Positions 80 to 6,998 of a DNA stretch of 31,109 nucleotides are shown piece by piece; the stretch's first letter is position 1, and every line of letters begins with the position of its first letter. The stretch is from Candidatus Baldrarchaeum yapensis (GTDB lineage: Archaea; Asgardarchaeota; Baldrarchaeia; Baldrarchaeales; Baldrarchaeaceae). Location of the stretch: contig JAEOSH010000019.1 in assembly GCA_016840465.1 (NCBI GenBank), positions 1 to 31,109 of the forward strand, given 5' to 3'. Position numbers and translations under genes: made by a program. The notes under the pieces were generated by a model. That model searched no databases, was not told where the DNA came from, and was given only the letters and a program-made list of their open reading frames with translations.

Positions 80-897
80 TCACACGCACGTCTTTCCGGT
101 GGCGATCCGCTCCACGTTCAGCGCAAGCGACAGCCACTTCACGAGGGCGTCTGCGCTCTCCACGAGCGCATACCTCAACGACCTCTTGAGTCTCGCCTTG
201 AGCCTCGAGCAGAAGCGCTCCCCCTCACTCCTGTGTCGGTACAGGTGTCTGAGGGCCTCGAAGACCCCCTCGTACCTCGCGGTCCACCCACGTCGTCTTC
301 CCCGGCGCGACGGCCTTCTCGGCTTGACGAGCAGGAACGCATTTCTCTCCAGGGTCTCTTCCACAACGCCCTTGCCGGAGTACGCGAAGTCCGCGAGGAC
401 GATGGCCTTTTCGGGGACGAATTTCAGGAGCGCCCTGTAGCCCTGAATGTCGGCTGTGGAGCCGTGAGTTGCGGTTGCCGCCACCACGATGTCGGATCGT
501 ATGTCGTAGAGGAAGTGCACCTTGAGTTTGAGGCCCTTTCGGCGGTGTGGGATTCCGGTGGAATCAGTGACTAGGAGGTTGGGGCTTCCGGCCATTTTCG
601 CGGCCGTTTTCATTGCCCAGTCCTTGAGTTTCGTCCACGCCCTATGGATTATTGCGGGCTGGGCGACGCTCCCACGATGAGGGGTGCGAGCTCCGCGGTT
701 CTCTTGAACGTCAGGTTGAGGAGTGCCTTTAACGCGCAGAGTGTGGCCAGCTGCCAGGGCTCTTACTTCGGCGGTCGTCCCCTTCGGCATCGTCTCTCCC
801 GTTCCCTCGGCGCTAGCCGGGTTGCCACATCGATGATAGCTTTAATAACGTTGCACTCACGTGGTATACTTGTGGGCTGGTCGGTGCGGGGGTGCAT
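80..897 (-). pseudogene. Disrupted DDE transposase
   Basis: The C-terminal frame has DSTG, ADFAYS and HRSEGER (DDE triad-like). The plausible N-terminus is in another frame from ATG 897: MHPRTDQ...RRGRPPK*EPWQLATLCALKALLNLTFKRTAELAPLIVGASP. It has an in-frame TAA at 765-763 (RGRPPK[Y]) and a 1-nt frameshift near 655-665. Confidence 0.75.
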
Positions 898-930: not shown

Positions 931-1224
931 TAACCTTTACTTTTGTAAAATTATGAAACAGCCTCGCCGTAGTACCTATCGTAGCAAGCAATAGCTTCGT
1001 CTCTGAAATTTTTGCGTCCCCACACTATTTTGAACAAGAGTGTCGGTCATGTTGGTGCAAGAATCGAGATGCCAGAAATATTCATTTTTATCAATTTACA
1101 GTTTGATCATGGCATGCTCCTAGCAATTTTAATGTAATGTCGCGATTTTGAAGGAGATAATGAGTGAAGGATATTTGTGTGACGTTTCTTCTAGCCGTAT
1201 CACTCTATGTCTTTTTGCTTCATC

Positions 1225-1382
1225 GTGACACGGCCTCATCGGTTCCGCCTCGCCCAGAGGGCTCGCCTCCACGCCTCATCCCGTAGGGTCATGGGCGGCG
1301 GTCGAGGTTAACGGCACGGGCCTCCCATCCACGCTCAGCCCCGCGGGCTCGGAGCGCTGTTCTCATCGCCCGCGCACCCGTG
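1225..1382 (-). ncRNA. GC-rich structured RNA with several K-turn/C-box-like motifs; possible orphan TnpB omega-RNA-like (IS200/IS605 right-end) element
   Basis: 109/150 GC over 1231-1380, in AT-rich flanks. Stems: CGCTC-AGCCC/GGGCT-GAGCG (1332-1356), ATGGG/CCCAT (1291-1328), GCCC/GGGC (1252-1262), CACGG/CCGTG closure. GATGA motifs at 1363-1367, 1276-1280, 1236-1240 and 1220-1224. TATA-like element ~25 nt upstream. The strand assignment is inferred. Confidence 0.55.
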
Positions 1383-1400
1383 AAAATGATGGCGCACCAC

Positions 1401-1415
1401 ATTGTAAACGTTTTC
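1401..1415 (-). promoter_or_regulatory. Putative BRE/TATA-like promoter (GAAAACGTTTACAAT) for the structured RNA
   Basis: Purine-rich run plus TTTACAA ~25 nt upstream of the GC-rich block. Non-consensus TATA. Confidence 0.3.
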
Positions 1416-1456
1416 CCCGAAACACTATGACACAAAATCCTATAAAACGCTACAGT

Positions 1457-2110
1457 TTAATGTTTCTGCCCCTCACTCGTTGTCTTCGCGTCCAGCACGC
1501 CCTTCTTCTTTCTCAGCTCCACCTCTATTATCATCCTCGCGAGTTTGTAAAATGCCTTATCTACATTATCACCTCGTATCGCGCAAGTCTCGATATAAGG
1601 GACAGGAAGCTCAAGTATATTTTCGAGTTCCTTTGCAAGTTCCATTCCCAACTCCGTAGTGATGTGCGGAAATACCTTATCTCGTAAGTCTATCTTATTT
1701 GCGACAAGCACTATGGGAACCTTGTACCCGCAGTTCTTCAGGAGTTCCATTACCCAGAGCGGTACGTTTCTGAACGATGCGAGGTTTGAAACGTCATATA
1801 CGACCATAGCCCCGCGTGCGCCTTTATAGAAAGGCGCCCTTACTTCCTTAAAATGTGGTTGTCCCGCAAGATCCCAAATTTGGAACGTTATCATAGCTCT
1901 ATTTCCGATGGTTATCCTTTTTATTGAGAAATCGACGCCGAGGGTGGGAATATACTCCTCATGCAAACTCTCTCCCATAAATTTCTTCCTTAGAGTCGTC
2001 TTTCCGCAACCTCCATCCCCTATGAGGACAATCTTGCACGCTATGTGAATTTGACTCATAAACATGACCTCAAAGTCGCGTTTTCTGAGAGCAAACCGGA
2101 ACGTGCTCAT
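1457..2110 (-). CDS. Rab-like small GTPase (Ras superfamily)
   Basis: G1 GDGGCGKT, G2 YIPTLGVDF, G3 WDLAGQ, G4 NKID, G5 TCA. RabF-like LGVDF, FQIW, FYKGA and VVYDVS. No C-terminal Cys prenylation motif. The start may be a downstream Met. Confidence 0.93.
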   Translation of the reverse strand: MSTFRFALRKRDFEVMFMSQIHIACKIVLIGDGGCGKTTLRKKFMGESLHEEYIPTLGVDFSIKRITIGNRAMITFQIWDLAGQPHFKEVRAPFYKGARGAMVVYDVSNLASFRNVPLWVMELLKNCGYKVPIVLVANKIDLRDKVFPHITTELGMELAKELENILELPVPYIETCAIRGDNVDKAFYKLARMIIEVELRKKKGVLDAKTTSEGQKH

Positions 2111-2191: not shown

Positions 2192-3244
2192 TTATTCCAA
2201 ATTGCCTAGGGCATCTACAAAGCCCTTCACGAGTTCAATTGCGTTCTCCAAATCTCTCAGATCCAATAATGACGCCGCGCTATGGATATACCTCGTAGGA
2301 ACGCTCACAACACCGGATGGAACTCCGGATTTCGATACGTGGATTGCACCTGCATCGGTGCCGCCTGAAATTGTCTGTTTAAACTGATATGGTATTCCCA
2401 ACCTCTCTGCAACTTCCACCAGCAATTTCACAACCTTAGGATGCGCAATTAACGTATTATCAGCAATGGTAATCGCTGGGCCGCCACCCACCTTCGTTGA
2501 TGCCAGATGATCGGGAGTACCGGGAGTATCGGACGCCGTTGTCCCCTCTAGAGCAAGTGCAACATCGGGTTCTATCTGCCAAGCGGCAGTCCTTGCTCCC
2601 CGTAGCCCTACTTCCTCCTGTACGGTTGCTACCCCATAAACCGTGTATGGAGAGTCTTTTAGTAATCGCATAACCTCGATTAGCACCGTACACCCCGCGC
2701 GATCGTCAAACGCTTTACCAAGTACTCTGTTATTTCCTAAATCTACTAAGTTCGTTGCAAATACCGCTAGGGACCCTATCTTCACTCCTAAGTTCTTTAC
2801 CTCCTCTCGCGAAGACACGCCCACGTCTATGAAGAGTTGATCCACATCGGGTACGGTCTTTCTCTCCTCCGGCTTCAGCAAGTGCGGAGGTTTGGCGCCA
2901 ATGTACCCGTAAACTACCCCTTTATCCGTTTTTATCATAACCCTCTGCCCGTAGAGGGTCCTAGGATCTATACCCCCCAGATTAAAGAACCTGAGAAAGC
3001 CTTTATCGTCGATGTGCGTTATGAGGAGGGCAACCTCATCCATATGAGCTGAAAGCATAACCTTCGGTCCCGACCCCTCATGAACCGCTATTACGTTCCC
3101 CAGCTTGTCGACTCTGACTTCATCGGCCACACCTTCCAACTCCCTAATCATGATCTCCCGAACCTCATCCTCATATCCAGGAGGACCGTACGCCTCGGAG
3201 AGTTCCTTAAGCAGAGACAATATTCTGAGTCTGGCGTTTTCCAT
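2192..3244 (-). CDS. M42 family (TET-like) aminopeptidase
   Basis: HMDE, KAFDDRAG, QEEVGLRGA, GGTDAG and RYIHS motifs; GGAGGTGA RBS 4 nt before the ATG. Confidence 0.95.
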   Translation of the reverse strand: MENARLRILSLLKELSEAYGPPGYEDEVREIMIRELEGVADEVRVDKLGNVIAVHEGSGPKVMLSAHMDEVALLITHIDDKGFLRFFNLGGIDPRTLYGQRVMIKTDKGVVYGYIGAKPPHLLKPEERKTVPDVDQLFIDVGVSSREEVKNLGVKIGSLAVFATNLVDLGNNRVLGKAFDDRAGCTVLIEVMRLLKDSPYTVYGVATVQEEVGLRGARTAAWQIEPDVALALEGTTASDTPGTPDHLASTKVGGGPAITIADNTLIAHPKVVKLLVEVAERLGIPYQFKQTISGGTDAGAIHVSKSGVPSGVVSVPTRYIHSAASLLDLRDLENAIELVKGFVDALGNLE

Positions 3245-3255
3245 GTCTTCACCTC

Positions 3256-3519
3256 CTACTCTTCATATTTCTCAACATCTTCAAGTTCTCCCATGGCCTT
3301 CAACATTTCTCTCTCCCACTGTGCTCTTCTTATGAAAAATTCTTCCATTTTAACGTCCTTTTGAGTATTTATGCAGTCAGGGCAGAAGAACTTCGGCTCA
3401 ACGCCAGCACATCCGCTTGGCCAGAAATCCAACTCCACGCAATCCCAACATAAAGGCTTCCCGCAACTCTCACATTTTAAAGGGGCCTCTTCGGCCCCGC
3501 AGATGGCACACTTTACTAT
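3256..3519 (-). CDS. Small Cys-rich zinc-finger protein (87 aa), apparent ATA start
   Basis: The frame is open 27 codons upstream of the tracked GTG: IVKCAICGAEEAPLKCESCGKPLCWDCVELDFWPSGCAGVEPKFFCPDC, then a helical tail. GGGGGTGA RBS followed by AAGACA-ATA, with an in-frame TGA just upstream. The stop overlaps the RBS of the M42 gene. Confidence 0.7.
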   Translation of the reverse strand: MVKCAICGAEEAPLKCESCGKPLCWDCVELDFWPSGCAGVEPKFFCPDCINTQKDVKMEEFFIRRAQWEREMLKAMGELEDVEKYEE

Positions 3520-6120: not shown

Positions 6121-6998
6121 TTACCTGAACTATCTCCCTGAAGGAGTTTTTCGAGGCCATAATCGAGTACCATGTCTATATCATTCTGAACTTTAAGTAA
6201 GGTTGTGAGAAGGTCCTCAACTATCCTCGGGTCCAGATCGGTAATGTTCATCGCCATTACTGACTTCGCAAAGTCTATGGCCTCCGAAATTGACGGAACC
6301 TTCTGCAACTTCATTGAACGTAGCCTATTTACGAACAGAACTATCTTTTCAAGAACTTTCTCCTCTATTCCCGGGCAATGCGCCTTTATGATCCTCTTTT
6401 CCAACTCCATAGGCGGAAAGTCGAGATAAAGATATATGCACCTCCTTCTCAGGGGCTCTGATAGTTCACGTGAGTTGTTCGATGTAATGACAGTGTAGAG
6501 TTTCTGCCCCTCGGGGGCCCTTATTGTTCCGAGCTCGGGGATCGTTATCTGTCTCTCTCCGAGAAACTCTAAGAGGAAAGCCTCGAACGCCTCATCCGCC
6601 TTATCTATTTCATCTATCAGCAGCACCGCCTTTTCAGATCTTAGCGCCTTGAGGAGAGGACGTTCAAGCAGAAACTCCTCCGAAAAAATCGACGCCTCTG
6701 TGTCATCTAAGGATCCACGCGCACTGTCTATCTGTATCCTCAGGATCTGCTTATGGTAGTTCCACTCGTATATTGTCTGCTCCACGAGGATTCCCTCGTA
6801 GCACTGAAGTCTTATGAGGGGATACCCCAGCATCTTCGAAAGCGCTATCCCGAGGCTTGTCTTACCACATCCAGCTGGTCCCTCGATTAGGAGCGGCTTT
6901 TCCAAGTTCAACGCTAGAAAGACGGCTGTTACGATCTTTTTGCTGGGAATGTAACCTACATCAATAAGTCTCTTTTCGATCTCCTCCATCGTAAGCAT
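6114..6998 (-). CDS. MoxR-family AAA+ ATPase (CoxD-like)
   Basis: Walker A GPAGCGKT, RLQCYEG, Walker B LLIDEIDKAD, TSN and LRRRC; overlaps the VWA gene. Confidence 0.92.
   Translation of the reverse strand: MLTMEEIEKRLIDVGYIPSKKIVTAVFLALNLEKPLLIEGPAGCGKTSLGIALSKMLGYPLIRLQCYEGILVEQTIYEWNYHKQILRIQIDSARGSLDDTEASIFSEEFLLERPLLKALRSEKAVLLIDEIDKADEAFEAFLLEFLGERQITIPELGTIRAPEGQKLYTVITSNNSRELSEPLRRRCIYLYLDFPPMELEKRIIKAHCPGIEEKVLEKIVLFVNRLRSMKLQKVPSISEAIDFAKSVMAMNITDLDPRIVEDLLTTLLKVQNDIDMVLDYGLEKLLQGDSSGKW

Follow-up and report, generated by a model that had tools for sequence, protein, structure and literature searches.

An Asgard archaeal contig carries a GC-rich island that contains no gene of its own, which raises the question of whether the island is a structured RNA in its own right or part of a larger element. 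It lies near the beginning of a 31,109-nt stretch (hereafter the window), which is contig C9 (JAEOSH010000019.1) of the 2.27-Mb, 100-contig metagenome-assembled genome (MAG; 96% complete, 46% GC) of Candidatus Baldrarchaeum yapensis, a member of a GTDB class of five genomes only. The initial annotation had taken positions 1205-1415 for an orphan, trans-acting guide RNA resembling the right end of a TnpB omega RNA, with its own promoter and no tnpB, and had named a non-autonomous IS200/IS605 derivative and a new multi-K-turn RNA as alternatives. We find that the island is the core of a tnpB-less mini-transposon, not a free-standing RNA gene. Very probably, window positions 1182-1468 (minus strand) are a 287-bp, protein-less derivative of an IS607 insertion sequence (IS), similar in kind to a miniature inverted-repeat transposable element (MITE), and this copy is an immobilised, decaying relic rather than a working guide-RNA gene. 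The identity and architecture of the mini-transposon are established; its transcription, TnpB binding and mobility can at best be inferred.

Homologues of the island were identified in an exact-word scan of species genomes, which gave one true homologue (L056, in a Thermoproteales MAG), and in a two-block pattern scan of metagenomes, where nine of 11 matches were true homologues and two (L063 and L071) were due to chance; a scan of viral contigs gave chance matches only. The full-length copies (L065, L067, L068, L070, L072 and L073) show what the island derives from. Their homologous stretch, on the strand equivalent to the window's minus strand, is the final ~200 nt of an open reading frame (ORF) of 434-435 aa, which was read in L067 and L065, while L068, L070, L072 and L073 were assigned by conserved downstream coding sequence. 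The L067 and L065 product is TnpB (PF07282, E 1.7e-12; NF040570, E 1.6e-24), and in L067 the gene is preceded by a TnpA with MerR-HTH and resolvase domains (ORF 2228-2863; Resolvase, E 1.5e-27; HTH_17/MerR); the element is therefore IS607-type. Of the proposed non-autonomous IS200/IS605 derivative, then, the non-autonomous state and the superfamily hold, and the family is IS607.

Two other Asgard genomes encode TnpB proteins with 62-74% identity to that of L067, and a third has a 43% identical relative; a hidden Markov model (HMM) of the family, built from the homologues of the island, matched Asgard tnpB 3' ends with E values of 1e-45, 7.6e-44, 2.9e-40 and 3.1e-14 (L074, L075, L076 and L077). 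The suggested resemblance to a tnpB 3' end or omega-RNA right end without an adjoining tnpB is thereby upheld. With the same HMM, nhmmer matched window positions 1167-1379 (E 3.9e-45), and the omega-RNA scaffold homologue and tnpB 3'-end relic were placed at 1183-1380 (minus strand, the 5' limit being approximate). BLAST of the island against genomes of the family, the class and 400 members of the phylum gave no significant match, which we regard as a failure of sensitivity because the family HMM found tnpB-linked copies in three such genomes. The L067 locus (2228-3344) also includes part of another serine-recombinase gene on the plus strand (3075-3344), truncated where the contig ends and facing tnpA; two IS607 copies therefore lie head to head.

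Remains of the coding sequence are still legible in the window. Both peptides that the initial annotation had linked to archaeal TnpB C-termini, GLSVDGRPVPLTSTAAHDP (1279-1341) and LWARRN (1242-1265), are present on the minus strand in two frames, and the link was confirmed by alignment. In tblastn with the C-termini of the L065 and L067 TnpB proteins, the first relic (GLSVDGRPVPLTSTAAHDPTG, 1279-1341, minus strand) was identical at 15 of 21 residues (E 9e-9, in a search space of 401 window bases only) and the second (RALWARRN, 1242-1265, minus strand) aligned in a different frame, so that a frameshift must lie between them; the full-length C-termini read ...LDGRLVPLASTATHDP...SLWARWN.... The first relic runs straight into a stop codon (HDPTG, then stop), and another in-frame stop lies upstream. 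This stretch of the window is a dead relic of tnpB coding sequence.

The other homologues are tnpB-less: besides the window copy (WIN), these are C24, L064, L066, L056 and L069, of which four are in other assemblies, and all sit in unrelated flanks. The C24 copy lies in the host genome and is 76-86% identical to the island, with 32 nt missing. BLASTN, which had been proposed as a check, gave no match to the genome's own tnpB 3' ends. A third, diverged copy was detected with the family HMM at C72:9873-10016, and the family in the host genome thus comprises two copies and one diverged relative. Depth over 1177-1344 was 2-10 times that of the flanks in contigs of four vent/sediment metagenome DNA runs. 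That the island is a repeat follows from the second and third genome copies, the raised metagenome depth and the loose contig ends at 1183.

The right end of the element lies beyond the point at which the initial annotation had placed it. The GTGTCAC described as an end (1232-1226) is the 5' arm of a terminal hairpin at 1194-1234 (minus strand; read from the sequence as GCCGUGUCAC, a 21-nt loop and GUGAUACGGC), which is retained in C24 and L064, where G-C pairs have become G-U, and has an 11-13 bp counterpart at the same position in the full-length relatives. Homology to the other copies continues to 1182/1183, metagenome contigs diverge at 1183, and conservation stops at the right-end terminus GAAACGT (sense; 1182-1188, minus strand). 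The right terminus is AAACGG in nine of 11 aligned copies, full-length and short, the exceptions being the window (AAACGT) and L069 (AAACTG); the right end of L056 was untraceable, and this copy was left out of the right-terminus comparison of tnpB-less copies. Beyond the terminus, the flanks differ in every copy.

According to the omega-RNA rule, the guide is the sequence directly 3' of the right end (PMC10691335), and the 20 nt in that position (1162-1181, minus strand; sense CACACAAATATCCTTCACTC) would serve as the guide in a scaffold transcript extending past the right end. The guide originally predicted at 1224-1205 coincides with the loop of the conserved terminal hairpin and a portion of its 3' arm, and the conservation of this stretch between copies makes it unlike a guide. 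When the genome was searched with the 1181-1162 20-mer and with the 1224-1205 20-mer, as had been suggested for the flank, each returned its self match only at up to 3 mismatches.

The left end (1409-1468, minus strand; sense 5'-CAGAAACATTAAAC...) has a terminus shared with the other copies and adjoins GGGG (sense; 1469-1472, minus strand), which resembles a target-adjacent motif (TAM) and occupies the position of the IS607 TAM and core GG. In each of the six tnpB-less copies, GGGG (once AGGG) is followed by CAGAAAC or CTGAAAC, and the terminus GGGGC(A/T)GAAAC is common to WIN, C24, L064, L069 and L056, that of L066 being AGGGCAGAAAC; read on the opposite strand, every tnpB-less copy ends ~90-130 nt past the scaffold in AATGTTTC(T/A)GCCCC (sense GGGGC(A/T)GAAAC). 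The minus-strand TATA-like element of the initial annotation was borne out as two boxes, a first A/T-rich one inside the left end (TTTTATAG, 1447-1440, minus strand) and a conserved one (TTTACAAT, 1408-1401, minus strand) ~20-25 nt upstream of the conserved scaffold start. The latter lies in the same alignment column in five of the six tnpB-less copies (WIN, C24, L064, L066 and L056, not L069); relatives have TTTATAGT or CTTATAAT/CTTATAGG, the general form is CGTTTAYARTG-like (sense), and the window version (TTTACA) is the weakest variant within the family. The box at 1408-1401 is a putative promoter.

These termini can be compared with a published IS607 element that has a GG core dinucleotide, a TGGG target/TAM and a scaffold ending in ...UCGG, and for which non-matching core dinucleotides abolished excision (10.1101/2023.11.20.567912). 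At the level of the family, the IS607 rules are followed, with GG-containing junctions, ...ACGG against GGGG and no duplicated target sequence. The GGGG beside the left end (its TAM role being putative) and the ...ACGG of the right end differ at position -3, as do TGGG and TCGG, and the core dinucleotide at the junctions is GG in nine of 11 aligned copies. The window copy has GG on the left side and GT at the right end, which should block excision, judging by the published assay.

Traces of insertion are visible in coding sequences. On C24 (L002, G000:C24), a split frame extends over 140-576, and excising 254 nt (151-404) in silico fuses two frames without duplication (...RVDTAP-HLISYPGHIH...), so that ...RVDTAP continues in frame into HLISYPGHIHLF.... 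Up to the junction, the left piece gives a weak match to the TumE profile (PF20126; positions 2-45 of 81, E 0.062), and Pfam and NCBIfam searches of the right-hand piece gave no match. The in-frame join is a trace of insertion of the element into a gene, putatively one for a TumE-like toxin. In the window, a Rab-like GTPase gene (1457-2110, minus strand) ends within the left end, its last four codons (GQKH) and stop coming from the GGGG at 1469-1472 and left-end positions 1457-1468, and its present C-terminus has therefore been shaped by the insertion; in silico removal of 1182-1468 extends the frame to ...TTSEG-HTNILHSLSPSKSRHYIKIARSMP and a stop (238 aa, no Cys). Metagenome contigs from the four DNA runs contained no joint bridging 1181 to 1469 of the kind that an empty-site allele would give, which is not evidence of absence.

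Whether the island has a conserved RNA structure was answered by the family, not by the window copy. RNAalifold on eleven sequences gave 29 pairs in six helices, in which 95.1% of cells were paired and nine of the 29 pairs showed compensatory changes; no shuffle out of 500 reached these values, and pairing in slid controls was 35-50%. Compensatory changes were also observed in the central hairpin of the Asgard tnpB 3' ends (GGGAGCCG...CGGCTC versus GGGAGGCT...AGCCTC). The full-length copies form 26-29 of the 29 pairs as Watson-Crick pairs. The window copy forms 22 Watson-Crick and two G.U pairs and has four A.C mismatches, located in two helices; three A.C mismatches were found in L066, and 13 pairs are lost through deletion in C24. 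The closing stem, GAACC/GGUUC in L064 and C24, is weakened to GAACC/GGCUA in the window. Folded as a single sequence, the island did not surpass shuffled sequence on either strand (z = -0.09 and -0.30). The several stems that had been proposed are thus supported as a conserved structure at family level and not by the window copy's own fold. An RNA read from the plus strand was first suggested by U.G pairs in two helices of the window copy (A.C on the minus strand), and was rejected because canonical pairing on the tnpB strand is the rule in the other family copies, to which the window copy is the exception.

In the full-length elements, the TnpB ORF runs through the entire omega-RNA scaffold nearly to the right end (L067 937-1130; L065 5391-5580), and the last ~60 residues are therefore encoded by structured RNA sequence. 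These residues follow the PF07282 domain, whose last residue is 372, and include the conserved peptide DGRL(V/I)PLASTATHD. The scaffold region of full-length elements is under coding and RNA constraint together.

The composition and motifs of the island have a narrower bearing. The 73% GC reported for it applies to the 150 nt from 1231 (72.7% over 1231-1380; 71% over 1226-1378), while GC is 63% over the whole of 1205-1415, against a genome average of 46%. Four GATGA motifs are indeed present on the minus strand (starts 1367, 1280, 1240 and 1224; dinucleotide-shuffle mean 0.62, P = 0.0006), but they are conserved within the tnpB-less subfamily only, the first being GATGG in nearly all relatives, and the A of the first motif of the window copy disrupts a helix pair as a copy-specific mutation. 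No box C/D layout was present in the island, and the K-turn and C/D motifs have no conserved paired arrangement across the family. A search of 1205-1415 with Rfam covariance models, the check proposed for HgcC and IS605-associated families, gave zero matches at the gathering score or at E up to 10 (families considered: HgcC, IS605-orfB-type, RAGATH-type, signal recognition particle (SRP) RNA, RNase P RNA, and C/D and H/ACA small RNAs). Rfam searches of the full-length relatives and of the element on contig C96, described below, showed nothing relevant, and a tRNA scan found none.

No cognate TnpB was found in the 96%-complete host assembly, the best match, on C96, being 35% identical. C96 carries an autonomous IS607 with intact TnpA and TnpB genes and a left end (GGGCTGAAAC) closely similar to the cassette terminus GGGGCAGAAAC, and from this similarity the resident C96-type TnpA might once have moved the window cassette. 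The host genome also contains at least 16 copies of a gene-less IS607 mini-element of 271 nt that shares the GGGGC(A/T)GAAAC left terminus (contigs C11, C27, C28, C39, C55, C57, C69, C71, C75, C76, C80, C82, C89, C92 and others). Between its left end (GGGGCAGAAACGTATAGTGTTGC) and its right end (CAGAACGG), this element has a TATA box (CTTATAAA) and a GC-rich scaffold. Over the final 115 nt, it shares 93% identity with the 3' end of the intact tnpB on C96, and each copy has a distinct flank after CAGAACGG. A third type of mini-element, ~205 nt long (G000:C72:9875-10078 and G000:C60 near 7015), has GGGCAGAAACGTTTAAAT at its left end and GGGACAAACGG at its right end, and its compact scaffold is distantly related to the window family (nhmmer E 6.5e-7).

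The explanation that we favour begins with an IS607 parent from which an internal deletion would have removed tnpA and nearly all of tnpB, leaving the left end (CAGAAAC...) abutting GGGG, the TATA-like box, the final ~200 nt of tnpB (the omega-RNA scaffold) and the right end. As published work on IS607 and IS605 would predict, a serine-recombinase TnpA supplied in trans would move such an element by recombination at the GG core dinucleotide. The scaffold, with a guide derived from the flank, would be produced either by transcription beginning near 1380 or by read-through out of the GTPase gene, and a cognate TnpB would use this RNA to cut the empty donor site, after which recombination would restore the element. 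Since the GTPase gene is on the same strand and ends in the left end, read-through could make the scaffold, as tnpB mRNA does.

The window copy itself is most likely an immobilised, decaying relic and not a working guide-RNA gene. This is suggested by the four broken pairs in two helices and the weakened closing stem, by the right-end GT, the weakest TATA variant, the lack of a cognate TnpB and a guide-equivalent 20-mer matching its own flank only, and by the stop and frameshift in the tnpB relic.

Several considerations weigh against this account. The window copy may be silent or active, and 'decayed' is a judgement, not a measurement, since some RNAs tolerate A.C mismatches. A cognate IS607 copy could be missing from the 100-contig MAG because repeats often fail to assemble. 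The structure in the covariation test came from the same alignment on which it was tested, and most of the tested region is also protein-coding in the full-length copies, where coding constraint conserves the sequence independently of RNA structure. The mini-element cassette may be chimeric, because its left-end motif was not found in the fetched full-length relatives and the left end of L067 is different. Lastly, the interruption of the TumE-like gene on C24 rests on a weak Pfam match (E 0.062) and the in-frame join.

It is unlikely, in our judgement, that the island is a working stand-alone omega-RNA gene, as initially proposed, that is transcribed from its own TATA box and serves, in trans, a TnpB from another locus, which would then cleave the empty donor site or some other target. 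The TATA-like box is at the same column in five tnpB-less copies, but its window form (TTTACA) is the family's weakest variant, and although 24 of the 29 family pairs still form in the window copy, the four A.C mismatches in two helices and the weakened closing stem of the terminal hairpin argue against a working RNA. Intact IS607 TnpA and TnpB genes are available on C96, yet this nearest TnpB is 35% identical to the cognate type, and the 3' end of its gene has no detectable similarity to the island. Precedents exist in published stand-alone omega RNAs that work in trans (PMC10691335) and in palindrome-associated transposable elements (PATE), which often encode omega RNAs (PMC10055086); set against them are the right end ...CGT instead of ...CGG and a guide-equivalent 20-mer that matches its own flank only. 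The trans action claimed in the initial annotation lacks support on the same grounds, namely the missing cognate TnpB in the 96%-complete assembly, the structure-breaking mutations and the lack of a second genomic target for either 20-mer.

It also appears improbable that the cassette is still in use, transcribed from the left-end TATA or as the 3' untranslated region of the GTPase mRNA, with its RNA taken up by a divergent TnpB of the host genome or a TnpB from a co-resident element or virus, and moved by a C96-type TnpA. If this were true, the cassette and the 16+-copy family would together form a dispersed, promoter-driven guide library outnumbering the nucleases in an Asgard archaeon.

There is very little likelihood that a full-length IS607 lost tnpA and tnpB by local deletion in situ and was never mobilised as a mini-element. 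The stop and frameshift in the tnpB relic are those of a decaying gene and the right-end core dinucleotide is mutated, but the same junction of left end and scaffold, the same length class and the TATA box are found among the five other tnpB-less copies in unrelated flanks, a recurrence that makes independent local deletions implausible, and the C24 copy interrupts a gene. A new multi-K-turn (L7Ae-binding) or other housekeeping RNA unrelated to TnpB can be dismissed as having almost no chance of being correct, since the four GATGA motifs and the K-turn-like layout of the terminal hairpin (stem, GAU, GA ... GA, stem, as read from the sequence) face unambiguous homology to tnpB 3' ends, motifs that are not family-wide, the first of them breaking a helix pair here, the SRP and RNase P RNAs of the genome located on other contigs, the absence of an Rfam match, and a multi-copy element with one copy interrupting a gene. 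Binding of L7Ae to the terminal hairpin would be compatible with the mini-transposon reading.

The surroundings of the mini-transposon contain other mobile DNA. Positions 1 to ~965 of the window belong to a separate multi-copy IS (60-66% GC, with many metagenome variants) inside which the contig starts; it has a DDE_Tnp_1 (PF01609) transposase ORF at 80-790 (minus strand, 236 aa) and a GC-rich hairpin at ~900-930. Between this DDE IS and the island are ~217 bp of single-copy AT-rich DNA. The 11-mer GGGGCAGAAAC recurs in the window at 6490-6512 (minus strand, ending at 6510), where it is followed by ribosome-binding-site-like sequence and no GC-rich scaffold; about one chance match is expected in this genome.

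With the mini-transposon reading, what appeared to be an unknown structured RNA is resolved into annotated ends, a TATA box, a scaffold and a guide position, and the transposon-supplied end of the GTPase and the split TumE-like gene on C24 are accounted for. The IS607 omega-RNA family concerned, absent from Rfam, extends over Asgard genomes, one Thermoproteales MAG and metagenome contigs that belong to no bin, and the window cassette is a guide-only cassette that has outlived, or become separated from, its nuclease.

Comparable elements are known. Stand-alone omega RNAs are mobilised without an effector or transposase, work in trans and occur beside compatible effectors (Altae-Tran et al. 2021, via PMC10691335), and the protein-less PATE elements of IS605 'often encode omega RNAs' (Meers et al., PMC10055086). 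Like the window cassette, both have mobilised ends and a guide scaffold without a nuclease or transposase gene, the guide being the flank past the right end. The window cassette differs from them in its Asgard host, in having IS607 ends (serine recombinase, GG core) rather than IS605 hairpin ends moved by a Y1 transposase, and in that its host genome yielded no compatible effector.

The Clostridium botulinum IStron (10.1101/2023.11.20.567912) has in common with this family the GG junctions, a G-rich motif beside the left end (TGGG there, GGGG here), the lack of a target-site duplication, an omega RNA overlapping the tnpB 3' end, and a scaffold or right end finishing in ...CGG, with position -3 distinguishing the element itself from target DNA. 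The window cassette, in contrast, has no genes, no group I intron, a right end ...CGT, an archaeal host and no Rfam model. Another archaeal parallel involves ISC1733, an IS607-type element that consists of a resolvase gene plus orfB. SMN1, a 320-bp Sulfolobus islandicus MITE dependent on the ISC1733 transposase, is likewise archaeal, ORF-less, ~300 bp long and served by a transposase in trans; the likeness is one of description, and the paper makes no mention of an omega RNA in SMN1 (PMC3718332).

The closest comparison is within the host genome, where the 271-nt family has an identical architecture (left end GGGGCAGAAAC, TATA box, GC-rich scaffold and right end ...AACGG). That family, with its 16+ copies, has a scaffold matching the resident C96 tnpB, whereas the window family is rarer and its scaffold is that of a TnpB type found in other genomes only. 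Stand-alone omega RNAs having already been published, the window element is a kind of selfish element already known, belonging to an archaeal sequence family of IS607 type that Rfam lacks, and it adds an IS607 and Asgard example to the stand-alone omega RNAs of TnpB biology.

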